Positions 1 to 23,956 of a stretch of DNA of 23,956 bases are shown one piece after another. The number at the start of each line of letters is the position of its first letter. The first letter of the stretch is position 1. Below the pieces are notes generated by a model, which was not told the DNA's origin, searched no databases, and saw only the letters and a list, made by a program, of their open reading frames with translations. A program made the position numbers and the translations under genes. Source of the stretch: a virus. The stretch lies in UHGV virus genome UHGV-0168080, one strand, 5' to 3'.

Positions 1-1
1 C

Positions 2-637
2 CAGATATTCATGAACGACGTGTTCCTGAAGCGCCTGACGGCCCCCACCATTACCAGCGGCGGCAATCCTCCGGCCTTTTCCCTGACACCGGACGGAAAG
101 CTGACTGCTAAAAATGCGGATATCAGTGGCAGTGTGAATGCGAACTCCGGGACGCTCAGTAATGTGACGATAGCTGAAAACTGTACGATAAACGGTACGC
201 TGAGGGCGGAAAAAATCGTCGGGGACATTGTAAAGGCGGCGAGCGCGGCTTTTCCGCGCCAGCGTGAAAGCAGTGTGGACTGGCCGTCAGGTACCCGTAC
301 TGTCACCGTGACCGATGACCATCCTTTTGATCGCCAGATAGTGGTGCTTCCGCTGACGTTTCGCGGAAGTAAGCGTACTGTCAGCGGCAGGACAACGTAT
401 TCGATGTGTTATCTGAAAGTACTGATGAACGGTGCGGTGATTTATGATGGCGCGGCGAACGAGGCGGTACAGGTGTTCTCCCGTATTGTTGACATGCCAG
501 CGGGTCGGGGAAACGTGATCCTGACGTTCACGCTTACGTCCACACGGCATTCGGCAGATATTCCGCCGGATACGTTTGCCAGCGATGTGCAGGTTATGGT
601 GATTAAGAAACAGGCGCTGGGCATCAGCGTGGTCTGA
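2..637 (+). CDS. J: Tail tip host-specificity protein J, C-terminal receptor-binding fragment (5' end lies outside the window)
   Basis: Open frame runs from the window edge; the translation (ending ...[17 protein letters not shown]) matches my recollection of the lambda J C-terminus, and lom follows directly as in lambda. Confidence 0.8.
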
Positions 638-698
638 GTGTGTTACAGAGGTTCGTCCGGGAACGGGCGTTTTATTATAAAACAGTGAGAGGTGAACG

Positions 699-1319
699 AT
701 GCGTAATGTGTGTATTGCCGTTGCTGTCTTTGCCGCACTTGCGGTGACAGTCACTCCGGCCCGTGCGGAAGGTGGACATGGTACGTTTACGGTGGGCTAT
801 TTTCAGGTGAAACCGGGTACATTGCCGTCGTTGTCGGGCGGGGATACCGGTGTGAGTCATCTGAAAGGGATTAACGTGAAGTACCGTTATGAGCTGACGG
901 ACAGTGTGGGGGTGATGGCTTCCCTGGGGTTCGCCGCGTCGAAAAAGAGCAGCACAGTGATGACCGGGGAGGATACGTTTCACTATGAGAGCCTGCGTGG
1001 ACGTTATGTGAGCGTGATGGCCGGACCGGTTTTACAAATCAGTAAGCAGGTCAGTGCGTACGCCATGGCCGGAGTGGCTCACAGTCGGTGGTCCGGCAGT
1101 ACAAGGGATTACCGTAAGACGGAAATCACTCCCGGGTATATGAAAGAGACGACCACCGCCAGGGACGAAAGTGCAATGCGGCATACCTCAGTGGCGTGGA
1201 GTGCAGGTATACAGATTAATCCGGCAGCGTCCGTCGTTGTTGATATTGCTTATGAAGGCTCCGGCAGTGGCGACTGGCGTACTGACGGATTCATCGTTGG
1301 GGTCGGTTATAAATTCTGA
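699..1319 (+). CDS. lom: Outer-membrane beta-barrel protein Lom (Ail/Lom family)
   Basis: 206 aa with an N-terminal signal peptide (MRNVCIAVAVFAALAVTVTPARA) and a C-terminal ...GVGYKF beta-barrel end; sits in the lambda position between J and stf. Confidence 0.9.
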   Translation: MRNVCIAVAVFAALAVTVTPARAEGGHGTFTVGYFQVKPGTLPSLSGGDTGVSHLKGINVKYRYELTDSVGVMASLGFAASKKSSTVMTGEDTFHYESLRGRYVSVMAGPVLQISKQVSAYAMAGVAHSRWSGSTRDYRKTEITPGYMKETTTARDESAMRHTSVAWSAGIQINPAASVVVDIAYEGSGSGDWRTDGFIVGVGYKF

Positions 1320-1383
1320 TTAGCCAGGTAACACAGTGTTATGACAGCCCGCCGGAACCGGTGGGCTTTTTTGTGGGGTGAAT

Positions 1384-4215
1384 ATGGCAGTAAAAATTTC
1401 AGGAGTCCTGAAAGACGGCACAGGAAAACCGGTACAGAACTGCACCATTCAGCTGAAAGCCAGACGTAACAGCACCACGGTGGTGGTGAACACGGTGGGC
1501 TCAGAGAATCCGGATGAAGCCGGGCGTTACAGCATGGATGTGGAGTACGGTCAGTACAGTGTCATCCTGCAGGTTGACGGTTTTCCACCATCGCACGCCG
1601 GGACCATCACCGTGTATGAAGATTCACAACCGGGGACGCTGAATGATTTTCTCTGTGCCATGACGGAGGATGATGCCCGGCCGGAGGTGCTGCGTCGTCT
1701 TGAACTGATGGTGGAAGAGGTGGCGCGTAACGCGTCCGTGGTGGCACAGAGTACGGCAGACGCGAAGAAATCAGCCGGCGATGCCAGTGCATCAGCTGCT
1801 CAGGTCGCGGCCCTTGTGACTGATGCAACTGACTCAGCACGCGCCGCCAGCACGTCCGCCGGACAGGCTGCATCGTCAGCTCAGGAAGCGTCCTCCGGCG
1901 CAGAAGCGGCATCAGCAAAGGCCACTGAAGCGGAAAAAAGTGCCGCAGCCGCAGAGTCCTCAAAAAACGCGGCGGCCACCAGTGCCGGTGCGGCGAAAAC
2001 GTCAGAAACGAATGCTGCAGCGTCACAACAATCAGCAGCCACTTCTGCATCCACCGCGACCACGAAAGCGTCAGAAGCTGCCACCTCAGCCCGGGATGCG
2101 TCGGCTTCAAAAGAGGCGGCAAAATCATCAGAAACGAGCGCAGCCTCGAGCGCCAGTAGTGCAGCTTCCTCGGCTACGGCGGCAGGCAATTCCGCGAAGG
2201 CGGCAAAAACGTCCGAGACGAACGCCAAGGCTTCTGAAACAGCAGCGGAACAGAGTGCCTCCGCAGCAGCAGGCTCAAAAACAGCGGCTGCGTCGTCCGC
2301 CAGTGCCGCGTCAACAAGTGCCGGGCAGGCCTCAGCCAGTGCTAGCGCCGCCGGAAAATCGGCAGAAAGCGCCGCATCGTCCGCTTCAACAGCCACAACG
2401 AAGGCTGGCGAAGCCACTGAACAGGCCAGTGCAGCAGCGAGGTCTGCTTCCGCAGCGAAGACATCCGAGACGAACGCGAAAGCGTCGGAAACCAGCGCAG
2501 AATCCTCAAAAACGGCTGCCGCATCGTCCGCCAGTTCGGCGGCGTCATCGGCCTCATCGGCGTCTGCTTCAAAAGATGAGGCGACCAGACAGGCGTCCGC
2601 AGCGAAGGGCAGCGCCACGACAGCATCCACGAAGGCGACAGAGGCAGCTGGTAGTGCGACGGCAGCAGCTCAGAGCAAAAGTACGGCGGAATCCGCGGCA
2701 ACGCGCGCTGAGACAGCGGCAAAACGGGCAGAGGATATTGCATCCGCCGTGGCGCTTGAGGATGCGAGCACGACGAAAAAGGGGATAGTACAGCTCAGCA
2801 GTGCGACCAACAGCACTTCCGAGTCACAGGCGGCAACGCCAAAAGCCGTTAAGGCCGCGTATGACCTGGCTAACGGGAAATACACCGCACAGGATGCAAC
2901 GACAGCACAGAAAGGGATAATCCAGCTAAGCAGCGCGACCAACAGCACATCTGAAACGCTTGCCGCGACACCGAAAGCAGTGAAAGCAGCTAATGACAAT
3001 GCGAATGGTCGGGTACCTTCTGCCCGTAAGGTGAATGGTAAGGCGCTTTCAGCGGATATAACACTGACACCGAAAGATATTGGTACGCTTAACTCAACAA
3101 CAATGTCATTCAGCGGTGGTGCTGGTTGGTTCAAATTAGCAACGGTAACCATGCCACAGGCGAGTTCTGTTGTTTCAATTACGTTGATTGGTGGCGCTGG
3201 ATATAACGTCGGTTCACCTCAACAGGCAGGTATATCTGAACTTGTTTTGCGTGCAGGTAATGGTAATCCGAAGGGGATTACTGGTGCTTTATGGCAGCGC
3301 ACATCGACAGGGTTTACAAATTTTGCCTGGGTCAATACATCTGGTGATACTTACGATATTTACGTTGCAATCGGAAATTATGCGACTGGTGTAAATATTC
3401 AATGGGATTATACCAGTAATGCCAGCGTGACGATTCATACGTCACCAGCATATTCTGCTAATAAGCCGGAAGGGTTAACGGACGGTACAGTTTATTCACT
3501 CTATACGCCATCAGAGCAGTTTTATCCGCCTGGCGCACCAATCCCGTGGCCATCAGATACCGTTCCGTCTGGCTATGCCCTGATGCAGGGGCAGACTTTT
3601 GACAAATCTGCATACCCGAAACTTGCAGCCGCTTATCCGTCAGGCGTGATCCCTGATATGCGTGGCTGGACGATTAAGGGCAAACCTGCCAGTGGTCGGG
3701 CCGTATTGTCTCAGGAACAGGACGGCATTAAATCGCACACCCACAGCGCCAGCGCATCCAGTACGGATTTGGGGACGAAAAACACATCGTCGTTTGATTA
3801 CGGAACCAAATCCACGAATAACACCGGGGCGCATACCCATAGTATTAGCGGGACTGCAAATAGTGCCGGTGCGCACCAACACAAGAGTTCCGGTGCATTT
3901 GGTGGCACGAACACGAGCATTTTCCCTAATGGTTATACCGCGATTTCAAATCTAAGCGCGGGGATTATGAGCACAACAAGCGGTAGTGGCCAGACTCGTA
4001 ATGCAGGGAAGACATCATCAGATGGTGCTCATACCCACTCGCTGTCCGGCACTGCTGCAAGCGCAGGCGCACATGCACATACTGTCGGTATTGGTGCTCA
4101 TACGCACTCCGTTGCGATTGGTTCACATGGACACACCATCACCGTTAACGCTGCTGGTAACGCGGAAAACACCGTCAAAAACATCGCATTTAACTATATT
4201 GTGAGGCTTGCATAA
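1384..4215 (+). CDS. stf: Side tail fibre protein Stf, with an extended Ala/Ser-rich repeat shaft and His-rich C-terminal tip
   Basis: N-terminus [26 protein letters not shown]... is lambda Stf-like; the ATG at 1384 is preferred over the upstream in-frame GTG at 1378. Contains a duplicated KGI(V/I)[20 protein letters not shown] motif and C-terminal GAHTHS/GAHAHT/GSHGHT repeats. Confidence 0.85.
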
Positions 4216-4790
4216 TGGCATTCAGAATGAGTGAACAACCACGGACCATAAAAATTTATAATCTGCTGGCCGGAACTAATGAATTTATTGGTGAAGGTGA
4301 CGCATACATTCCGCCTCATACAGGTCTGCCAGCAAACAGTACCGATATTGCACCGCCAGATATTCCGGCTGGCTTCGTGGCTGTTTTCAACAGTGATGAT
4401 GCATCGTGGCATCTTGTTGAAGACCATCGGGGTAAAACAGTTTATGACGTGGCATCAGGGGACGCGTTATTTATTTCTGAACTCGGTCCGTTACCGGAAA
4501 ATGTTACCTGGTTATCGCCGGAAGGGGAATATCAGAAGTGGAACGGCACAGCCTGGGTGAAAGATGCAGAAGCAGAAAAACTATTCCGGATCCGGGAGGC
4601 GGAAGAAACAAAAAACAGCCTGATGCAGGTAGCCAGTGAGCATATTGCGCCGCTTCAGGATGCGGTAGATCTTGAGATCGCAACGGAGGAAGAGAAATCG
4701 TTACTGGCCGCATGGAAGACATATCGGGTGTTGTTGAATCGTGTTGATACATCACTATCTCCAGATATCGAGTGGCCAAGTCAACCATAA
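4215..4790 (+). CDS. tfa: Tail fibre assembly protein Tfa
   Basis: 191 aa, lambda Tfa-like ([48 protein letters not shown]...); the start overlaps the stf stop (TAATG). Confidence 0.9.
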
Positions 4791-4797
4791 ATCAATA

Positions 4798-4816
4798 TCC
4801 CCTGCAATGCAGGGGA
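4798..4816. terminator. Hairpin between convergent tfa and sopB, candidate bidirectional terminator
   Basis: TCCCCTGCA-A-TGCAGGGGA inverted repeat flanked by A/T-rich sequence on both sides. Confidence 0.5.
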
Positions 4817-4822
4817 TAATTC

Positions 4823-5788
4823 TTAATTATCAGTAGATTGTTCCTCTAGTAACAACTCAATTTTGCTTAGTATTTCTTTAGATATTTTGCGGCTATCAAT
4901 TTTTATAGTTACAAAATTCCCTTTATATCTAGCCGTGATCCCTTCCCCATATTTTTTCTCGTCTTTTGTTTTTTCCTCGTCGCCAACCAGAACAGAGTCA
5001 GATAATATTTGTATAATCCGTGAAGCTTCTAAATCCTCGCCGTTTTTTTTTATTGTCAGAAGATGATGAGCAGCATTGCTCATGGCAGCCATGTTTTTTT
5101 TGTAAATCTTAAACAAAGAATCTCCAGCACGAGCTGACAGTTCTCCTGGATGATTGAAGATAGCTAATATATCTTTTGGTAGACCAGCTGTATTAATACA
5201 GCGAGTGATAATATTTCTATCTATATTTTCAGCCTCGGCCAATGCTTTAACGTTACCATCAAAGTCATTTAGCTTGCGTAAGTATCTCTTTCCTCTTTCG
5301 TATGCACTAATAGGCCTATAATCGTTACCAATTTGGGATAACCAATGCATCTGTTCATCGTCGAGATCACCAATTAAGACGCGATAGTCACATCCTGTTA
5401 ATATCGCTGCTTTTCTTCTACGTGAGCCGTCAGCGACTTCAACGATTCCAGATACTTTTCTGGCGAAAGCTGGATTTTGTTGTCCAGACGTTAGAAAAGA
5501 TGGGATTAAATCGGCTAGAGAGGATTCATTTAATAAATCTTGATCGCGTTCATTACCTAGCCATACCATTGTTGCCATTTCAACTTTATCTGCGGGAATT
5601 GTCTCTAACTTAAAGTTAACATTACGTCCGCATACTGGCAAAGTTATGCTGTTACCGGTTAATGAACTCAGTTGACGTTTTAAATCACCAACCATAGGTG
5701 ATACGGGCTGATGTTCAGGGGCATGATGATTATTACTCATAATGCGATTAATATCTGGAGCATTTTTTAGAAGAGAGCGCTGTTTCAT
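4823..5788 (-). CDS. sopB: Plasmid partition protein SopB (ParB family centromere-binding protein)
   Basis: 321 aa with F SopB-like blocks (ITLPVCGRNVNF, LGNERDQDLL, DGSRRRKAAILT, YRPISAYERG); start overlaps the sopA stop. Confidence 0.9.
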   Translation of the reverse strand: MKQRSLLKNAPDINRIMSNNHHAPEHQPVSPMVGDLKRQLSSLTGNSITLPVCGRNVNFKLETIPADKVEMATMVWLGNERDQDLLNESSLADLIPSFLTSGQQNPAFARKVSGIVEVADGSRRRKAAILTGCDYRVLIGDLDDEQMHWLSQIGNDYRPISAYERGKRYLRKLNDFDGNVKALAEAENIDRNIITRCINTAGLPKDILAIFNHPGELSARAGDSLFKIYKKNMAAMSNAAHHLLTIKKNGEDLEASRIIQILSDSVLVGDEEKTKDEKKYGEGITARYKGNFVTIKIDSRKISKEILSKIELLLEEQSTDN

Positions 5789-7391: not shown

Positions 7392-7433
7392 ACATAATTC
7401 CCCATTATACGCGCGTATAATGGGGAATTATGT
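7392..7433. other. Telomere-resolution site (telRL/tos core): 42-bp perfect palindrome with a central CGCGCG
   Basis: ACATAATTCCCCATTATACGCGCGTATAATGGGGAATTATGT is its own reverse complement, with symmetry centre at 7412/7413. The central 22 bp (CCATTATACGCGCGTATAATGG) is identical to the N15 telO core as I recall it, and the site lies directly upstream of telN. Confidence 0.85.
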
Positions 7434-9529: not shown

Positions 9530-9665
9530 GTTATGTGGCCCACCTCGCCTACCCCCTGCAAAGGGCAGAAGTAACGGAGGAAACGCGGCTGCAACCACAG
9601 ACATCACCGCCCCGACTGCGAGGCTTCCCTTCTCTGAGAAGGGCATAAATTCGGGCTGGCCAACC

Positions 9666-10448
9666 CTATTTATTGGTGATTTCTGCTGGCTTTAGCTGCG
9701 CGGATAACTGCTCAAGTTTTTGAACTGCCAGTTCAAAATGCGCGGGCAACGCCTTTTCCAGATCAGAGTTAATATCGGTGATGGGCAAATCACCACACGA
9801 CATACTCCGCCTACCCCCACGAACAACATCACGCAACAACTCTCGTTCATACGTGCGCATGTTCCCCAATGCCGACTCAGCAGCCGTTAAAATCCGGCGC
9901 AGTTCTGCCGTAATTGCTGGTAAATCATCAACCGTTATGGGGTTCGGGGATGGATTACGACACGCCCGACGCAAAGCCAACCATACACCGCTAATCCAGG
10001 CATTTCGGTACTGAAAACTTTGTGCTATATCGTTGATCAGCCCTCGCAGATACTCTTTCTGCCTCCAGTTCAACGGCTCTGCTGCTCGCATTGGCTCAGG
10101 TTCGACGTAAACGTACTCTCCATTCTTACGAATAGAGGGCAGGACCTCGTTCGTTACCCATTTACGAAACCGCCATGCAGTCGTGCCCTGTTTTACAGCG
10201 TCACGGCAGCGGAGGATCAGGGTGTATAGACCTGACTCTGAAATAATATTTAGCTTTTGCTCTCCGCCAGGGGTGTAACTTAAAGTTACACCCTTTTCAT
10301 CCTCATCCAGAGACATTAGCGCCTTCCGGGAGTTAACGAGTCTTAAAGCATCACATACATCCTTAGCCACAAACCACGGCTCGCCGTTAATCATCACTAC
10401 ACGAACCTGATGCTCTTCCTGAAAGGAAAAGACTGCTAACGCGCTCAT
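9666..10448 (-). CDS. Bro-N domain antirepressor (Ant-like)
   Basis: 260 aa; N-terminal Bro-N hallmarks (F.F......VRVVMINGEPWFVAKDVCDAL...LDEDEKG...GGEQKLNIISESGLYTLIL); strong RBS AAGGAGG; last gene of a three-gene operon with ATGA overlaps. Confidence 0.8.
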   Translation of the reverse strand: MSALAVFSFQEEHQVRVVMINGEPWFVAKDVCDALRLVNSRKALMSLDEDEKGVTLSYTPGGEQKLNIISESGLYTLILRCRDAVKQGTTAWRFRKWVTNEVLPSIRKNGEYVYVEPEPMRAAEPLNWRQKEYLRGLINDIAQSFQYRNAWISGVWLALRRACRNPSPNPITVDDLPAITAELRRILTAAESALGNMRTYERELLRDVVRGGRRSMSCGDLPITDINSDLEKALPAHFELAVQKLEQLSAQLKPAEITNK

Positions 10449-10836: not shown

Positions 10837-10891
10837 GGTATGCACTCCGTTTAATTGGTCGTGCTACCACCAGAGTTCTCACGCTCTTGAA

Positions 10892-10973
10892 TGGTGGTAG
10901 CCCAAGCGGGGGTGAGAATACCGGCAAACGAAGAAACCGGCCTGACCGAAGTCAGCCCCGCCTGAGCCACCAT
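10892..10973 (-). ncRNA. Structured RNA-like element A in the antirepressor operon leader (candidate c4/CA-type antisense immunity RNA or its target module)
   Basis: About 82 nt bounded by GGTGG...CCACCA; minus-strand fold gives a long closing stem and an internal hairpin CUGAC-UUCG-GUCAG. Paralogue of element B. Confidence 0.45.
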
Positions 10974-11207
10974 AAATCGGATATGCGCAGGTATATACAC
11001 ACAAAAAAACACGCTGGCGCGTGTTGTGCGCTTCGTTTATCCGGGTTCTCACGCCCGGCTGCGGGATTTACCGCAGCGGAATAACTTTACCGTCAAAACG
11101 ACGCACACGTCAATAATTTGCAAAGACATTTTACCCTGTGACCAGTCACGGGGATAGGTGTTTTTATAGTTTGCTTAAACAAATGATTAGAAGATAAACG
11201 ATATTGT

Positions 11208-11287
11208 GGTGGTAGCCCAGGCAGGGTTCTCAACACCGGCCCAAACGACACCGGCCAGCCTTTCGGCTGCCCCGCCTGAACTACCAT
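11208..11287 (-). ncRNA. Structured RNA-like element B, paralogue of element A
   Basis: Same architecture and end motifs (GGTGGTAGCCCA...CCCCGCCTGA); the internal hairpin is CAGCC-GAAA-GGCUG on the minus strand, so the stem is kept by compensatory changes. Confidence 0.45.
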
Positions 11288-11390
11288 TAGAATAATATAC
11301 AACAAAACGTAGCATTTTTATTACATTAAAATATAAATATTGTTTACACTTTACTTTACTAATGGGGCGGCTCGGGCTATCCTGATTTTG

Positions 11391-11406
11391 CTGTATAAAA
11401 ACACAG
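11391..11406. promoter_or_regulatory. LexA (SOS) box CTGTATAAAAACACAG upstream of cma
   Basis: Fits CTGT-N8-ACAG; lies about 60 bp upstream of the colicin M ATG, as is usual for colicin promoters. Confidence 0.6.
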
Positions 11407-11467
11407 TATTTATGCAGCGATTAAACCTGTATGTCTGTTATTTCATTAACTTATAAGGGTTTTTGAT

Positions 11468-12283
11468 ATGGATACTATCGTTGTGACAGCTCCATCACCA
11501 TCAACTAACTTACCGAGTTATGGTAATGGCGCATTTTCTCTCTCAGCACCACACGTGCCTGGTTCTGGCCCCCTTTTAGTCCAGGTGGTTTACAGCTTTT
11601 TCCAGAGCCCAAACATGTGTATTCAGGCTCTAACTCAGCTTGAGGACTACATCAAAAAACACGGTGCCAGCGATCCCCTGACATTACAAATTATGTCAAC
11701 AAATATTGCCTACTTCTGTAACGCTGACAGAAACCTTATCCTTCACCGCGGAATAAGTGTTTATGACGCCTACCACTTAGCTAAACCTGCGCCAAATAAA
11801 TATGACTATCGCTCAATGAATATGAAACAAATGAGCGGTAATGTCACAACACCAATTGTGGCGCTTGCACACTATTTATGGGGTAATGGTGCAGACCGAA
11901 GCGTTAATATCGCAAATATTGGTCTCAAAATTTCTCCGATGAAAATTAATCAGATAAGAGATATTGTAAAATCTGGTGTAGTAGGCACATTCCCTATTTC
12001 TACAAAATTCACACACGCCACTGGCGATTATAATGTTATTACCGGCGCATATCTTGGTAATATCACGCTGAAAACAGAAGGTACTTTAACTGTCTCCGCT
12101 AATGGCTCATGGACCTATAATGGCGTTGTTCGCTCGTATAACGACAAGTATGACTTCAATGCCAGCACTCATCGTGGCGTAATCGGAGAGTCTCTTACAA
12201 GGCTCGGGGCGATGTTCTCTGGTAAAGAGTATCAGATACTACTTCCTGGCGAAATTCACATTAAAGAAAGTGGCAAGCGATAA
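11468..12283 (+). CDS. cma: Colicin M (lipid II-targeting bacteriocin)
   Basis: 271 aa, same length as colicin M and collinear with it as I recall the sequence (..APSPSTNLPSYGNGAFSLSAPHVPG.GPLLVQVVYSFFQSPNMC.QALTQLEDYIKKHGAS ... ILLPGEIHIKESGKR). Confidence 0.93.
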   Translation: MDTIVVTAPSPSTNLPSYGNGAFSLSAPHVPGSGPLLVQVVYSFFQSPNMCIQALTQLEDYIKKHGASDPLTLQIMSTNIAYFCNADRNLILHRGISVYDAYHLAKPAPNKYDYRSMNMKQMSGNVTTPIVALAHYLWGNGADRSVNIANIGLKISPMKINQIRDIVKSGVVGTFPISTKFTHATGDYNVITGAYLGNITLKTEGTLTVSANGSWTYNGVVRSYNDKYDFNASTHRGVIGESLTRLGAMFSGKEYQILLPGEIHIKESGKR

Positions 12284-12284
12284 T

Positions 12285-12311
12285 AAAAAGGCCGGGATTC
12301 CGGCCTTTTTT
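12285..12311. terminator. Bidirectional intrinsic terminator between cma and cmi
   Basis: AAAAA-GGCCGG-GATT-CCGGCC-TTTTTT: GC stem with an A-tract before and a T-tract after. Confidence 0.75.
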
Positions 12312-12333
12312 ATGCAGTCTTTATACCGATGTA

Positions 12334-12690
12334 TCAATCATTTGCATATTCAACATAACCTTCCTTGCAATGGTACATTCCATAATACATTCTCTTACCT
12401 TCCGGGCCTTCGGCTTTAAATGGGACGAGAAGCGTTTTTTCATCTTTAACATCTGTTAAGCTTCTTTCAATCTTTTCCCACGTAATTTTTGGGGCTTCTG
12501 TACCGAGAAGTTGTACATCGTTATTCCAACGCGTTATTTTTTTCAAAAAGTCATTTTTTACAAATTCTCTTGCCTGTTCATCACTAACCTTATAGCACTC
12601 TGGGCCTTTATTAGATTCAGGCCAGAAAAATACAATAGCAAGAGCAATAATTGATAAAATCAAAATGATTTTTATGCTAATTACTTTCAT
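12334..12690 (-). CDS. cmi: Colicin M immunity protein Cmi
   Basis: 118 aa; N-terminal membrane anchor (ILILSIIALAIVFFW) and strong resemblance to Cmi (..YKVSDEQAREFVKND....WNNDVQLLGTE.PKITWEKIERSLTDV.DEKTLLVPFKAEGP.GKRMYYGMYHC.EGYVEYAND); convergent with cma. Confidence 0.9.
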   Translation of the reverse strand: MKVISIKIILILSIIALAIVFFWPESNKGPECYKVSDEQAREFVKNDFLKKITRWNNDVQLLGTEAPKITWEKIERSLTDVKDEKTLLVPFKAEGPEGKRMYYGMYHCKEGYVEYAND

Positions 12691-12817
12691 AAAATCTCCA
12701 TCACCTTAAAAGCAAAACATACATATTTAGCCTTCATATTGTATGAGTATATCAATACAGTGTGTGCTTAATGTGAAGTAAAATTAACAATATATAAACA
12801 TTTAATATGCCGCGCAC

Positions 12818-13213
12818 TTAGTCGGCTTTATGAGTATCAACCATATACTTCAACCAGTAATCAACAATCGGTTGCTCATCTACAGAATGTTTACCAGGTA
12901 TAACTCGCCAGCTATCTTGCGAAAATCTGCCGTACTTACGCGGGAATAGGCCTTTCTTTATCTCCCGCCATGTACTAGGAAAACCATCCACAAAAGTACC
13001 AATTAACAGGAGAGGGACAAAAATCAGAGCTACAAACCATCGTGCAAGAAAGTGTTCAACAACAACATTTTCACCGTTGTAGTAATACGCATACGCATCC
13101 AATATGCGAATTTTCCTTACCTTAAAAATAGCCTTATGCTGAGAACGACTTAACTTGATACGAATGTATCCCTTATCCAAAGGGGATTCGTATTTGTATG
13201 ATTGAACAGCCAT
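12818..13213 (-). CDS. Hypothetical protein with one predicted transmembrane helix (function unknown)
   Basis: ATG at 13213 lies 2 nt after the upstream stop (the ORF-track start at 13225 is an in-frame GTG); hydrophobic segment FLARWFVALIFVPLLLIGTFV; I recognise no family. Confidence 0.6.
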   Translation of the reverse strand: MAVQSYKYESPLDKGYIRIKLSRSQHKAIFKVRKIRILDAYAYYYNGENVVVEHFLARWFVALIFVPLLLIGTFVDGFPSTWREIKKGLFPRKYGRFSQDSWRVIPGKHSVDEQPIVDYWLKYMVDTHKAD

Positions 13214-13603: not shown

Positions 13604-16600
13604 TTACCCATAGAAAGCGCCCTGCTCTTCGTAGCTGCATGGGCTATTCCCGGTAATATATTCACGTAACCGCCGCAGTTCATTACTGGACAAGTGATCC
13701 ATGAACTCTGTTAGGTACAGAGATGCAAACGTCATAGCTATGCTGGCTGATGACCATGATGACATAGTGGCCAGCTCCTCACAGGAAAGCGCACTCATAG
13801 CCCAGGACTCAGGTACAGCCACCGGCAACACTGCCAAAGCCTCAGAAATTACTGAATGAGGGGCGTTTTGAACCTGCTCATTTGTGGATCGCGTTTTATC
13901 ATCCATATATATATTGAGATCCAAATCGCGATCCATTTCGATGGCGGTCTTCTCGGCTTTGCGCGTTTTCAGGGTTAGGCCATCTTTCTGACGCTGAGCA
14001 AGAATATCCAGCATAAATGCCGCTGATTCAGGCTCAACAAAACGCAAGGTTGGACGCTTATCGCCGTCTCTGCCACGACGTTTACCTGTTTTAAGGCCAA
14101 GAGAGTCGCAAATGTTTTTAAACAACGCTTCCGGCACTTTAGGCTTCCCTTTTGGCGTCATAAAACCACCAATGTGCAGAACGTTATTCAACAGGTCACG
14201 GCGTTCGGCTGTCATGAGGTTATCTCGAGCGAATTTGAGACGCTCCTGAGTCGCCTCGCCGGTCATAGTCTCAGGGTTGATACCGCAGTCGATAAAGTAC
14301 TGCCGGAGAGTTGCTGATTTAAGCGCATAGAAACCGCGCGCCCCGACTTCAACAGTAGGAGTAGCTTTTACCTTGTAGTCGATTATTCCAGGGAATTTAG
14401 TTTTAAAGACATCATCAGCCTGCTCGCGAGTCATCGCGGTCACTACAAAATATTGCCACTGTCCCGCCTGACGGTATGCGTAGGTAAAATTGATGGCTGC
14501 TTCTTCCCGGTCGTAACGACGAGCTGTTACCTCATCTAAAAGCATTGTTTCATAGCGGCGAACTTTGTCTCGAGCACCATCGAAATAGAATTTCAGCGTG
14601 CCTTCTTCAACCGGTAGTTTCAGTTCGTTCTCAATATCCCAGCGGACAAGTTTTGCCTGTTCTTCAAGCGTCAGCGCGCGTTTTTTTAGCAGTTCTTCAC
14701 GCTCTGATTCTTGTGGAGTTTCTGTATTGAGATGCAGATCCAGTGTCTGTTCCCACACAATATCCCGCGCTTCTTTACGCAGATCTTTACCGATATCATT
14801 CGCAGCATAATCGGTGGCCAGCGGCGATACCTTATAACCGTCGCTGTGCATGATGCAGATCATGTTGCTGGCGTAGTCGTTACGCGCAGACGCTTCAATT
14901 GCGGCTGCTTTAATTTTCATCCTGGTAAAGTCGGTATTGGCCACCCCCATTGATATACGGTCGCCATCGAAAACGACATCCGTCAGTTCACCGTTCATGC
15001 CTGCGGTAGCAAGCAATGCCTGGGCGAATGCTCGTTCTATTTTTTGCGGGTCAGTTTCACGTTTTGCGCGAGCTTTATCAAAGCCGATAATAAATTCTTT
15101 TGCTGTACGGTCGCGGCGTAGCATTTGCACTGCGTCGCTGGGTACAACTTCACCACAGAACATGCCGAAATGACGGTCAAAATGTTTTTGCTCAATCGAC
15201 ACGCCGGATGAAATAGACGGGCTATAAATCAGGCCGTCGTATTTTTTGACCATCTTTTTCGGTTGATTGGTAAATGCTTCAACTTCTGGCTCTGGTTTGT
15301 TTTTCTGGTTTACACACAGAAATTTCTTACCAGGAAAATGCATTCTCAGGGTGGCGGTCACATCTTCTGCAAAGGTGGAGCTGTCGGTGGCCAACATAAT
15401 TTTTTCGCCATCCGATACAGCTTTCACCACCTCGGTCATAATGCGATCTTTTTCTGTATAAAAAACCCGGATTGGCTCACCTGTTTCGCGGTTGCGAACA
15501 TCAACAGGTAATTCAATTACGTGGATCTGCAGCCATGCGGGTAAACCGAGTTCTTCGCGGCGTTTCATAGCCAGTTCAGCCAGGTCAACCAGCAGATCGT
15601 TCGCATCAGCATCCACCATGATTGGGTGTTGTTCCGTTCTGGCCAGCGCATCAATTAGCGTATTGAATACAGCCACCGGGTTTTCCATAGCCCGACCGGA
15701 AAGAACGGCACGTAGCCCTTGTGTTGCCTCGTCAAAGCCAAAATAGTCGTGCTGGCGCATCAACGGTTGCCAGCAGTTTTTAACAATCGAGTTTATGCAG
15801 ATGGTCAGTTTACTGGCGTATGGGGCCATTTCCTGATAGCCAGGGTCCTGATAGTGCAGGATATCGGCTTTTACACCTTTTCCTTCAGTCATCATTTCCC
15901 ACAGACCACCAATAAGGGAAACACGGTGAGCTACAGAGATACCACGTTCTGAGCTATGCATTAACGGTCGTAACAATCCAGTAGATTTGCCGGAACCCAT
16001 ACCAGCACGGACGATGACTATCCCCTGTAGTGATTGCACGTACTTCAGGACGTCATCGGTCATTACCGAAGTATCAAAACGCTTATAGGTGATATGTTGA
16101 GGGCGTTTATTGGGATCAGTTATGCGTTCGCTGAAAGAGCGCGGAGCCTGGGCAATACGGCACTTTTTATTCAGGCGACGGGCAATATGGTCTTTTACCG
16201 TAGCGCGATAGATATTTTCCAGCCCCATTTCACGCAGAACGATACAGAACATGTTAAATAAATCTGACGGGCTGTTAGGAACCGGACAGGTCAGCATGCC
16301 AATATCTACCGCTCTCAGCAGCTCTTTGGCAAAAGTACGGCGGTTATCCCGCTTAATTGTCTTCAGGCGGTTGAGTGTCAGAGATAGCAAATCAGTACCG
16401 GTTTTCAGGCGGTTTGCTGTTGCGAATAGTTGACGTGCTGTTTCACGAAGTCCACGTAGTTTGTGCAGGTCGTTGAAGTCACTGCACTCCATTTGCGGAT
16501 CGTCTTCAAAAGTTGGGTAGACGCAGCGGACATCGTTGAATTTAGATAAGATTTCATAGCCAGTCCGCAGGCCGGTATTCCCTTTTCCTTCTGTGGCAGA

Positions 16601-17599
16601 TTTCCGGTCATTATCCAGTGCGCAGGTGATTTTTGCCGCCGGGTACATGTTTACCAGTTGTTCCACAACATGAACCATGTTGTTAGCGGATACAGCGACA
16701 ACCACAGCGTCAAAGCGTTTATCTTTTTTCGTGGCAAGCCAGATGGATGCACCAGTAGCAAAACCTTCTGTAACAGCGATGTTTTGCGCCCCTTTCAGCT
16801 CACCGATAACAAAGCAGGCACCGACGAAATCGCCGCTGGTTACTGCGCTGGTCTGGTATTTCCCACCTTGTTTGTCGATTCGCTGCCAACCCACAATACG
16901 ACCATCATAACGACCGTCCAGGTGAGCCAGAGGGATAGCCATATATGTGGTTGGCCCCCGGCTCCATTTCGCACTGTCGTGACTGGTCACGCGACGCACA
17001 TCACATGAACTAAAAACGTCACGAATACCTTTTTTAATCGCATATGGCCATGAGCCGTCTTCAGCCTGAGCATGTTCCCACGCGCTGTGGAATGCCAGCC
17101 ATCCCAGCAAACGTTCATGGTCCATTTGGTTGTTTTTCAGGTCATTAATTCGTTTTTGTTCTTCACGGCGACGACGTGCTTCGGCCTGACGTTCTATTCT
17201 TTCCCGTTCTTCTTCCGGTTGTGCGACCACGGTCGCATTATTCCGTTGTTGCTCACGGCGATATTCAGAAAACAGGAAGGAGAAACCGCTCCATGAGCCA
17301 GCATCGCTGCCTTTATGGACGAAGTTAATGAACGGGTAATCAATCCCTTTGCTGTGTTCCAGCCTGGAGTAAATTTCTACGCGTCCTTTCAGGCTCTTTT
17401 CGAGAGCTTCTGGAGATGTTTTATTGTATGAAGAGTAACGCTCAACCCCCCCGCGAGGGTTGAGTTGGATGTTGTCGGAACAGGCAGGCCAGTTGATACC
17501 AGCCATCTGTGCCAGCTCGGTTAGTTCATCCCGTGCTGCTTCAATTAGCGAGAACGGATCGCTGCCAAAGCGATCCGCATAGAAATCGTTTAATGTCAT
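13604..17599 (-). CDS. repA: Replication protein RepA (multidomain primase-helicase, N15 RepA-like)
   Basis: 1331 aa; Walker A GMGSGKSTG inside a helicase-like core; size and position (upstream of cB, same strand) match N15 repA. Confidence 0.92.
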   Translation of the reverse strand: MTLNDFYADRFGSDPFSLIEAARDELTELAQMAGINWPACSDNIQLNPRGGVERYSSYNKTSPEALEKSLKGRVEIYSRLEHSKGIDYPFINFVHKGSDAGSWSGFSFLFSEYRREQQRNNATVVAQPEEERERIERQAEARRRREEQKRINDLKNNQMDHERLLGWLAFHSAWEHAQAEDGSWPYAIKKGIRDVFSSCDVRRVTSHDSAKWSRGPTTYMAIPLAHLDGRYDGRIVGWQRIDKQGGKYQTSAVTSGDFVGACFVIGELKGAQNIAVTEGFATGASIWLATKKDKRFDAVVVAVSANNMVHVVEQLVNMYPAAKITCALDNDRKSATEGKGNTGLRTGYEILSKFNDVRCVYPTFEDDPQMECSDFNDLHKLRGLRETARQLFATANRLKTGTDLLSLTLNRLKTIKRDNRRTFAKELLRAVDIGMLTCPVPNSPSDLFNMFCIVLREMGLENIYRATVKDHIARRLNKKCRIAQAPRSFSERITDPNKRPQHITYKRFDTSVMTDDVLKYVQSLQGIVIVRAGMGSGKSTGLLRPLMHSSERGISVAHRVSLIGGLWEMMTEGKGVKADILHYQDPGYQEMAPYASKLTICINSIVKNCWQPLMRQHDYFGFDEATQGLRAVLSGRAMENPVAVFNTLIDALARTEQHPIMVDADANDLLVDLAELAMKRREELGLPAWLQIHVIELPVDVRNRETGEPIRVFYTEKDRIMTEVVKAVSDGEKIMLATDSSTFAEDVTATLRMHFPGKKFLCVNQKNKPEPEVEAFTNQPKKMVKKYDGLIYSPSISSGVSIEQKHFDRHFGMFCGEVVPSDAVQMLRRDRTAKEFIIGFDKARAKRETDPQKIERAFAQALLATAGMNGELTDVVFDGDRISMGVANTDFTRMKIKAAAIEASARNDYASNMICIMHSDGYKVSPLATDYAANDIGKDLRKEARDIVWEQTLDLHLNTETPQESEREELLKKRALTLEEQAKLVRWDIENELKLPVEEGTLKFYFDGARDKVRRYETMLLDEVTARRYDREEAAINFTYAYRQAGQWQYFVVTAMTREQADDVFKTKFPGIIDYKVKATPTVEVGARGFYALKSATLRQYFIDCGINPETMTGEATQERLKFARDNLMTAERRDLLNNVLHIGGFMTPKGKPKVPEALFKNICDSLGLKTGKRRGRDGDKRPTLRFVEPESAAFMLDILAQRQKDGLTLKTRKAEKTAIEMDRDLDLNIYMDDKTRSTNEQVQNAPHSVISEALAVLPVAVPESWAMSALSCEELATMSSWSSASIAMTFASLYLTEFMDHLSSNELRRLREYITGNSPCSYEEQGAFYG
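13885..13935. other. Candidate internal replication origin element inside the 3' end of repA
   Basis: 9-bp inverted repeat TGGATCGCG (13885-13893) / CGCGATCCA (13927-13935) flanking an (AT)5 tract. Confidence 0.3.
17222..17237. repeat. sopC-like centromere box TGCGACC-AC-GGTCGCA (candidate SopB binding site) inside repA
   Basis: 16-bp palindrome with the same architecture as the F sopC core TGGGACC-AC-GGTCCCA. Confidence 0.5.
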
Positions 17600-23154: not shown

Positions 23155-23236
23155 AAATTGACCGTAAAGTTTGAGTTTTACCCTGTAATTTTATACAGTA
23201 TAAATAACCTTTTTTAGTTAAATGGTATGAGATTTA

Positions 23237-23482: not shown

Positions 23483-23770
23483 TTAATAAACAGCGCGAAT
23501 ATCGATGGTTGCGCCGCAGGCATGAGCATATTTAGCCAAAGTTTTCATACTTGCCCCTAAAGGATTGCTTTCCAGGCGGCTGATGGCTGACGGGCGCAAC
23601 CCCATTCGTTCAGCCAGAGCTGATTTCGTTAAACCTGCTCTTTCCCTCATTTCGTATAACATTTCGACCATCTCCAGCTCTTTGTCGGCCTCTTCATATC
23701 CTTTGACGGCTTCTGGAGTGTTGAGGAGTTTTTCTTTTACTTCGTTAAACGGGATGCCTTTCGCTTTCAT
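23483..23770 (-). CDS. HTH (XRE-family) antitoxin of a HigBA/Gp49-type toxin-antitoxin pair
   Basis: 95 aa; HTH segment LTKSALAERMGLRPSAISRLE; start overlaps the stop of the upstream toxin-like gene. Confidence 0.75.
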   Translation of the reverse strand: MKAKGIPFNEVKEKLLNTPEAVKGYEEADKELEMVEMLYEMRERAGLTKSALAERMGLRPSAISRLESNPLGASMKTLAKYAHACGATIDIRAVY

Positions 23771-23907
23771 CAGTTCATCTCCTTCAGGCGAGTTCTGGCG
23801 ATTTCGATAGCCTTCACCGGTGTTTTCTGTGTCTTTTTTCTAAACGCATTAAATAAAACAACAATTACTTCTCCATCATATATAAAGAAAATTCGAAATT
23901 CATTATT
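23770..23907 (-). CDS. RelE/HigB-type (Gp49-like) toxin, C-terminal 45 codons only; N-terminus lost at the contig end
   Basis: The genome-encoded part reads NNEFRIFFIYDGEVIVVLFNAFRKKTQKTPVKAIEIARTRLKEMN; the ORF-track N-terminus MQRSLVGSEMCIRDR is translated adapter. Confidence 0.65.
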   Translation of the reverse strand, partial: NNEFRIFFIYDGEVIVVLFNAFRKKTQKTPVKAIEIARTRLKEMN

Positions 23908-23908
23908 C

Positions 23909-23956
23909 CTGTCTCTTATACACATCTCCGAGCCCACGAGACTACGCTGCATCTCG
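23909..23956. other. Illumina Nextera adapter read-through (Tn5 mosaic end plus index plus start of P7); assembly artefact
   Basis: CTGTCTCTTATACACATCTCCGAGCCCACGAGAC followed by the 8-nt index-like TACGCTGC and ATCTCG. Confidence 0.95.

Follow-up and report, generated by a model that had tools for sequence, protein, structure and literature searches.

A predicted SOS-inducible colicin M and immunity cassette at the telocin locus of an N15-like Escherichia telomere phage-plasmid

Textbooks tie colicin M to pColBM plasmids, and the finding of its toxin gene, cma, and immunity gene, cmi, on a virus genome raises the question of what this gene pair is doing on a phage and how its expression might be controlled there. 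The DNA under study is a stretch of 23,956 nucleotides (UHGV virus genome UHGV-0168080; "the window" below means this whole stretch, and all positions without a locus name refer to it), in which the pair lies between an antirepressor locus and the replication gene repA. This is the locus at which Klebsiella telomere phages were found in 2025 to carry bacteriocin:immunity cassettes named telocins (PMC12042878, Sci Adv). We put at roughly 80% the probability that the pair is a self-contained, SOS-inducible colicin M/immunity cassette that an N15-like Escherichia telomere phage-plasmid carries at its telocin locus as cargo for lysogenic conversion. By sequence comparison it is a genuine and apparently functional SOS-boxed pair.

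The toxin gene is complete. Its 271-residue product matches the Pfam family Colicin_M (PF14859) end to end (residues 4-271, E 8e-145) and crystallized colicin M (PDB 2xmx and 3da3) over residues 1-271 (E ~1e-173; 9e-174 for 2xmx), with 21 substitutions in 271 residues relative to colicin M (92.3% identity). The full-length gene claimed by an earlier sequence-only reading of this DNA thus stands. The catalytic C-terminal domain is present in the alignment, and the active-site motif DxYD(x5)HR, defined from mutations at D226, Y228, D229, H235 or R236 that abolish colicin M activity (PMC8469651), is intact, with all five residues identical. The FkpA-dependent bond F175-P176 is also kept. The N-terminus reads MDTIVVTA in place of the METLTVHA of crystallized colicin M, giving a TonB box of D2-T-I-V-V6 that had been suspected to be a variant and is indeed one: V6 is kept, L4I is conservative, and the substitutions L4P, L4N, V6E, V6G and V6R, listed as inactivating in a review (PMC8469651), are absent. 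DTIVV and N225 are each found in most colicin M homologues, and it is the classical E. coli protein that stands apart; we rejected D225N as an inactivating change because asparagine is the family majority state. FhuA/TonB-dependent uptake and hydrolysis of lipid II are what we infer for this protein from its 92% identity to characterized colicin M.

The convergent gene encodes an immunity protein with an N-terminal membrane anchor and a YebF-like periplasmic domain in which both cysteines align with those of classical Cmi (84% amino-acid identity). It scores 37.9 bits against the NCBIfam model YebF_not_Cmi, below the cut-off of 110, and is therefore not YebF proper. As the sequence-only reading had it, the two genes share a bidirectional terminator: the stem-loop AAAAAGGCCGGgattCCGGCCTTTTTT has folding energies of -17.3 and -17.8 kcal/mol for the respective strands (z-scores -4.2 and -5.0, with no shuffle as stable) and is conserved in the pColBM plasmid pEC_B24. 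A generic terminator scan missed this obvious structure, which is established by folding and comparison. cmi is reported to have its own promoter (PMC8469651), and a generic scan of 12691-12825 called no consensus promoter there.

The evidence for SOS control lies upstream of cma. The motif core CTGTATAAAAACACAG (11391-11406) is 61 nt before the ATG, in agreement with the LexA box placed there earlier at about 60 bp, and the pattern CTGT-N8-ACAG occurs twice in the window against 0.26 occurrences expected by chance. The box begins 5 nt after the -10 hexamer of a predicted sigma-70 promoter and so would lie over the expected transcription start, the usual colicin arrangement. On a position-weight matrix built from E. 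coli sites, its score of 23.5 falls within the range of those sites; the matrix is a rough guide, of which the exact-motif and conservation evidence is independent. The box is present in all ten cma-bearing loci. A chromosomal Salmonella cma (P0002, locus L020; a 77%-identical copy with 86% protein identity) aligns with the window from ~11352 on, and there the matches concentrate in the control elements: 6 of 7 positions in the -35 region CTTTACT (11354-11360), 5 of 6 in the -10 hexamer TATCCT and 17 of 20 in the LexA 20-mer TGCTGTATAAAAACACAGTA, against 3 of the 13 nt preceding the -35 region and 10 of the 40 nt of 5′-untranslated region (5′UTR) following the box, which is chance level. We read this pattern as the phylogenetic footprint of a sigma-70 promoter with a LexA operator over its start site. 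The telA promoter of Klebsiella phage 48ST307 is likewise similar to the 40 nt that directly precede the box, agreeing at 24 of 40 positions in the register set by the LexA box, the best ungapped match among 47,834 window 40-mers (mean 10, SD 2.7). Two more distant homologues have promoters that cannot be aligned with this one but show the same design: a stand-alone Enterobacter kobei copy (TTGACC-17-TAACAT, then a LexA box) and a moron that lies between gpK and gpI/J of a lambdoid prophage in Klebsiella (TTGACA-17-TAATAT, 7 nt, then a LexA box). Together, the Salmonella footprint, the telA match and the shared design in distant homologues indicate that the predicted LexA box is a lineage-wide feature of autonomous colicin M cassettes and not a chance motif.

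The window is part of an N15-like linear telomere phage-plasmid of Escherichia. It carries genes for a protelomerase, the partition proteins SopA and SopB, a CyRepA1 RepA, a CB-type repressor and Q, together with a tel palindrome and phage structural genes. From one end the order runs from a lambda-like J C-terminus, lom, stf and tfa through sopB/sopA, telRL and the protelomerase gene to the immA antirepressor locus, which encodes Bro-N, AntA-like (76-aa) and icd-like proteins as well as C4 RNA and isrK; repA follows, then the CB-type repressor, cro and Q. The telRL palindrome identifies the element as a linear prophage with hairpin ends, whose left telomere is ~4 kb away from cma. Among public records the nearest, at 95-97% identity, are linear plasmid-prophages of E. 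coli, including pS159-3, PhiR46_1 and YDC107_1. In blastn comparisons, homology to pS159-3 and PhiR46_1 stops at 11193 and restarts at 12826, and these breaks define a variable module that lies between the antA/antB antirepressor leader and repA (Table 1). The insertion site and genes proposed by the sequence-only reading are borne out; the extent that it gave was too small, and the module also includes a free-standing C4 RNA gene. In close relatives the site holds 344 bp with a 95-aa gene, annotated as "Spackle" in one record.

The same allele recurs at this site. The exact Cma protein is found in 141 indexed blocks of an assembly collection and was seen on 61 contigs, and exact-protein look-up placed cma/cmi at the same site of N15-like telomere phage-plasmids in each of the ten contigs examined, which were drawn from draft genomes at NCBI and from metagenomes at ENA and JGI; across these ten other telomere phage-plasmid contigs the module is 97.7-100% identical. 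No record covers at least 80% of 11100-13000 among 50,697 phages (INPHARED), 72,556 plasmids (PLSDB) and 5,426 complete E. coli genomes, nothing close appeared in peptide-pattern scans of IMG/VR viral contigs and species-representative genomes, and only exact-protein look-up, in draft and metagenome assemblies, brought the allele to light. In NCBI records the toxin is called "lipid II-degrading bacteriocin [Escherichia coli]", and the immunity protein of E. coli and E. albertii has no name beyond "YebF family protein" or "hypothetical", one member of the Cmi cluster belonging to E. albertii. Two of the contigs (L006 and L007) carry mirror-image duplications about the protelomerase/telL end (cmi-cma-ant-telN facing telN-ant-cma-cmi), which we read as assembly running through a covalently closed hairpin telomere.

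Telocins offer the closest precedent for cargo at this position. TelA of the Klebsiella phage NAR688 is located between repA and the protelomerase gene (PMC12042878; telA at 3139-4272 and immA at 4299-4844 of locus L016), and the window holds a toxin:immunity pair in the same interval. Related phages carry four further toxin:immunity pairs at the telocin locus, the set running from TelA/ImmA to TelE/ImmE, and some, termed Tel0, lack a toxin; TelA and TelE are pore formers, TelB is pesticin-like and TelC and TelD are colicin Z-like, all of them from Klebsiella and none of the colicin M type (PMC12042878). The finding made here is real, but it is less new than the sequence-only reading had assumed, since cassettes at this locus were already described. 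The telocin paper does not mention LexA or SOS control (PMC12042878), and we find a LexA box 27 nt before the telA ATG in both NAR688 (L016 3093-3112) and 48ST307 (L004 3077-3096), behind a TTGACT-17-TACCTT promoter. Because the validated telA has this unreported box, the comparison suggests that telocin expression in general may be under SOS control. A survey of N15-like phage-plasmids in clinical Escherichia, Shigella and Salmonella detected no telocin homologues (bioRxiv 10.1101/2025.09.12.675607), and the full-text literature that we searched for colicin M together with phage-plasmid, N15 or protelomerase contained no description of the present arrangement.

One SOS signal probably governs both colicin production and prophage induction. 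Apart from the box before cma, the window has a single strong LexA box, and it precedes a 67-aa open reading frame (ORF) that belongs to the same PHROG anti-repressor family as the AntA-like protein. In N15 (L018; NC_001901), a LexA box CCCTGTGTTTATATACAGTA at 3563-3582 precedes an ORF at ~3605-3830, between genes 47 and 48, that is unannotated in NC_001901 and 56% identical to the 67-aa ORF of the window. N15 has a LexA-controlled antirepressor, AntC, according to a citation of Mardanov and Ravin 2007 in PMC3121763, and the unannotated ORF is probably antC. By this homology the second box and its antC-type ORF are a probable SOS switch for prophage induction, which lends support to the earlier proposal of a shared signal. 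Another candidate output of the first box can be set aside. N15 induction is SOS-dependent, on which ground the antA/antB operon was first suspected to be what the box before cma serves. We rejected this because the ant operon has a promoter-like site (11113-11084) and a leader to itself, because N15 and close relatives lack a LexA box at that locus, and because the SOS-linked antirepressor is the small antC-type ORF elsewhere.

How the pair relates to the classical colicin M genes bears directly on whether it is a cassette in its own right or a piece of a pColBM plasmid. About 500 pColBM-type plasmids are its best DNA matches, and colicin M is classically known only from such plasmids, so a recent fragment that lost the colicin B genes cba and cbi on transfer, and that now persists as a decaying or silent relic without an SOS promoter, deserves consideration. 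Every one of these plasmids, however, matches only 11434-12707 and is only ~86.5% identical. Compared with pEC_B24, cma has dS 0.62 and dN 0.039 (dN/dS 0.064; 0.24, 0.05 and 0.04 for the three domains) and cmi has dN/dS 0.115; the high dS combined with low dN/dS indicates that both are old alleles with separate histories, each under strong purifying selection. Homology to pColBM reaches only ~30 bp ahead of the cma ATG, to the ribosome-binding site, and further upstream the window DNA bears no relation to the cbi-cma spacer. For classical cma, transcription comes from the SOS promoter that precedes cba (PMC8469651), and in pEC_B24 we find overlapping LexA boxes before cba only, the cbi-cma spacer having none; the copy in the window has its own predicted promoter and LexA box, in common with the Salmonella chromosomal copy. 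Neither cba nor cbi is among the ORFs of the window, so cma does not lie downstream of cba-cbi and a cba promoter, and colicin M does stand alone on a linear prophage backbone, as had been claimed. The intact catalytic residues, the family-majority states N225 and DTIVV and the 98-100% conservation of the module across many telomere-phage contigs also speak against decay. A recent pColBM origin is thus extremely improbable, and the cassette is most likely, on these comparisons, an old stand-alone cma lineage with its own promoter.

Two other explanations accept an old cassette and dispute what it does. In one, its function would be chiefly defensive or stabilizing, with Cmi protecting the host from colicin M producers or the pair acting as an addiction module, and little toxin would be released. 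The lack of a lysis gene and of a known release route for colicin M (PMC8469651) agrees with this, as does the carrier, a low-copy plasmid that also has a RelE/ParE-type toxin-antitoxin pair. Against it, purifying selection extends over the whole toxin gene, uptake domains included, which would be unnecessary if immunity alone were selected, and Klebsiella telocins at the same locus confer a measured competitive advantage (PMC12042878). Cytoplasmic colicin M would also fail to kill plasmid-free segregants in the manner of a classical addiction toxin. The reason is that colicin M acts from the periplasm. We consider a mainly defensive role improbable. In the other explanation, the LexA box would mainly serve the minus strand, controlling the free C4 RNA and thereby the antirepressor, and cma would be constitutive or respond to another signal. 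The box is nearly palindromic and sits 98 nt upstream of the free C4 gene on that strand, for which we found no clear separate promoter. The same -35/-10/LexA layout nevertheless precedes the Salmonella cma, where the flanking DNA is unrelated to the window upstream of ~11352, telA and stand-alone homologues of colicin M have LexA boxes ahead of them although their surroundings are unrelated, and the interval between box and C4 holds neither an a1b1/isrK leader nor a minus-strand promoter consensus. Control of the minus strand in place of cma is hardly to be expected on this evidence, and a dual role of the box, for cma and the free C4 RNA, is possible.

Several points weigh against our preferred reading of the pair as an SOS-inducible toxin cassette. 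Everything said here of LexA binding, of promoter and toxin activity, and of immunity and release is inferred. The -35 and -10 hexamers, TTTACT and TATCCT, are imperfect, and a generic promoter scan did not report the cma promoter. The TonB box and nine receptor-domain residues differ from those of characterized colicin M, so that dependence on FhuA and TonB is only assumed. Finally, TelA was detected in uninduced mid-log Klebsiella lysogens (PMC12042878), and by this precedent cma expression is not necessarily strictly SOS-dependent, nor release necessarily by way of full induction.

With these reservations, an SOS-inducible cassette would work as follows. In the lysogen, LexA bound just downstream of the -10 hexamer would hold cma mostly off, and cmi, transcribed convergently from its own promoter, would supply a membrane-anchored periplasmic protein that protects the cell, as its homology to classical Cmi suggests. 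On DNA damage, RecA-stimulated cleavage of LexA would derepress both cma and the antC-type antirepressor, the latter throwing the lytic switch as in N15. Since colicin M has no lysis gene, we propose that the toxin made in induced cells could be freed through phage-mediated lysis. By analogy with characterized colicin M, it would then enter non-lysogenic Escherichia via FhuA and TonB, be matured by FkpA, hydrolyse lipid II and kill competitors, to which sister lysogens would be immune. We speculate, tentatively, that telomere phage-plasmids supply the release step missing from colicin M, a single SOS signal driving cma and antC so that virions and colicin burst out together from a sub-population of lysogens, that the cassette travels with a heterotypic C4 RNA extending the immunity of the lysogen to related telomere phages, and that leader repeats serve as recombination handles for toxin swaps. 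This combination is possible but rather unlikely.

The C4 RNA gene inside the module is 72.6% identical to the C4 RNA of the ant operon, the differences falling in two loop regions, and no a1b1/isrK leader or promoter was found upstream of it. By analogy with c4 of P1 and P7, it may extend immunity to heterotypic telomere phages. An E. albertii contig (L009) bears on how the module moves. It has the C4 loop types swapped between the two positions and a third, hybrid copy (3588-3674, 3904-3991 and 5614-5700), copies of the antirepressor leader (C4-isrK-promoter) stand on both sides of its module as a 363-bp direct repeat with 88% identity, and it still has the 95-aa gene downstream of the module. 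Because the leader repeat flanks the module, this contig suggests that the module is exchanged by homologous recombination in the conserved antirepressor leader; on that view, the right-hand leader repeat would have been lost from the window. A palindrome, CCCTGTGACCAGTCACGGGG (11130-11155), lies just upstream of the ant-operon promoter and is conserved in N15 and Klebsiella phage 48ST307; it could be an operator for some regulator or a terminator-like hairpin.

Table 1. Positions in the window of the cassette, its predicted control elements and related features of the carrier.
Feature	Coordinates	Strand	Details
Variable module, 1632 bp	11194-12825	.	C4 RNA gene, promoter and LexA box, cma, terminator, cmi, cmi upstream region
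Left flank, antirepressor-operon leader	10890-11113	-	Promoter-like TTGACG-18-TAAAGT (11113-11084), isrK/a1b1 (11004-11090), C4 RNA (10890-10977)
Free-standing second C4 antisense RNA gene, inside module	11205-11291	-	Rfam RF01695, 69.2 bits (gathering score 45)
Predicted sigma-70 promoter of cma	11355-11383	+	-35 TTTACT (11355-11360), 17-nt spacer, -10 TATCCT (11378-11383)
Predicted LexA operator TGCTGTATAAAAACACAGTA	11389-11408	.	CTGT-N8-ACAG exact, AT-rich centre
cma, colicin M, 271 aa	11468-12283	+	Pfam Colicin_M; PDB 2xmx/3da3
Bidirectional intrinsic terminator AAAAAGGCCGGgattCCGGCCTTTTTT	12286-12310	.	Stem-loop between the convergent cma and cmi stop codons
cmi, colicin M immunity protein, 118 aa	12334-12690	-	PDB 4aeq, E 1e-55; Pfam YebF
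cmi upstream region, presumed own promoter	12691-12825	-	Partly conserved with pColBM to ~12795 (pEC_B24 alignment)
repA (CyRepA1)	13604-17599		
telRL, protelomerase target	7392-7433	.	Perfect 42-bp palindrome; many related records begin at this coordinate
Second predicted LexA box	23181-23200	+	37 nt before the 67-aa ORF; only other strong LexA box in the window
antC-type antirepressor ORF, 67 aa	23237-23440	+	PHROG anti-repressor family 6301/10889

Other observations concern the carrier. Its tail-tip region (1-4790; the J C-terminal receptor-binding domain, lom, stf and tfa) is ~97% identical to phage lambda and not to N15, and because of this the phage receptor is probably of the lambda type (LamB). 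The N15 receptor is FhuA, which is also the receptor of colicin M, and the N15 Cor protein blocks FhuA (PMC3594210). An Rfam IS009 match (199 bits, 4558-4756, plus strand) falls within the lambda-like tfa region. The Bro-N antirepressor-like gene is intact in the window (260 aa, 9666-10448) and a 54-aa remnant in the closest relatives, pS159-3 and PhiR46_1, making a second variable spot beside the telocin locus (9556-10352, against 4479-4643 of L001). The RelE/ParE-type toxin-antitoxin pair, annotated in relatives, lies at 23483-23952. The final 48 bases (23909-23956) are Illumina Nextera adapter read-through, consisting of CTGTCTCTTATACACATCTCCGAGCCCACGAGAC, an index and ATCTCG; they are not biological, and they give the last minus-strand ORF, which is the RelE/ParE-like toxin gene, its "SEMCIRDR" N-terminus.

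Phage carriage of colicin M-family bacteriocins looks common beyond telomere phages, since cassettes with YebF-like immunity genes and LexA-boxed promoters lie inside or beside integrated prophage tail modules in Klebsiella chromosomes (L025-L027, 5001-6198; between gpK and gpI/J), Salmonella (L020, 6001-7290) and Enterobacter kobei (L022, 5001-6193). The colicin M family and, since 2025, the telocin class are already known, and the genes are auto-annotated in databases. What appears to be undescribed is the Escherichia colicin M instance, its autonomous SOS promoter, the LexA logic shared with antC and the accompanying heterotypic C4 RNA. With the window, the telocin concept reaches beyond Klebsiella into Escherichia (E. 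coli and E. albertii) and gains a fourth toxin class, the lipid II hydrolases, an extension made notable by the absence of telocin homologues from Escherichia and Shigella in the clinical N15-like survey. It also points to a second, older vehicle for colicin M with an autonomous SOS promoter, and it offers, in phage lysis, a concrete hypothesis for how colicin M leaves the cell and an experimental handle on release. Typing by classical cma/cmi sequences or by plasmid replicons could miss producers that carry the genes on linear phage-plasmids.

Set beside known systems, the cassette resembles each in part. With the pColBM Cma/Cmi it shares the 271-residue, three-domain toxin with its catalytic residues and F175-P176, the convergent cmi with its anchor and cysteines, the bidirectional terminator and the block upstream of cmi, and neither has a lysis gene. 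The pColBM pair differs in being carried on a conjugative F-type plasmid, whereas the carrier here is a linear phage-plasmid, in being linked to cba/cbi and their SOS promoter where the window has its own promoter and LexA box, and in its ETLTV TonB box where the window has DTIVV; residue 225 is asparagine here, and the two are dS 0.62 apart. Klebsiella telocins share the locus, the plus-strand toxin, the convergent immunity gene and, in telA, the upstream LexA box, with promoters similar in register, but they carry toxin classes other than a lipid II hydrolase, in Klebsiella where the host here is Escherichia, and the extra C4 RNA gene in the module is a further difference from them. The stand-alone cassettes of Salmonella, E. 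kobei and Klebsiella (the klebicin M type) have the same convergent YebF-like immunity gene and their own sigma-70 promoter followed by a LexA box, the Salmonella copy sharing the promoter sequence itself; they are chromosomal or lie in integrated lambdoid prophages and are 54-86% identical, in contrast to the extrachromosomal linear prophage here, whose copy is the closest to E. coli colicin M among the stand-alone cassettes. AntC of N15 has its counterpart in the LexA box and anti-repressor ORF at the corresponding position in the window, outside the colicin cassette, and is relevant as the probable parallel SOS output.

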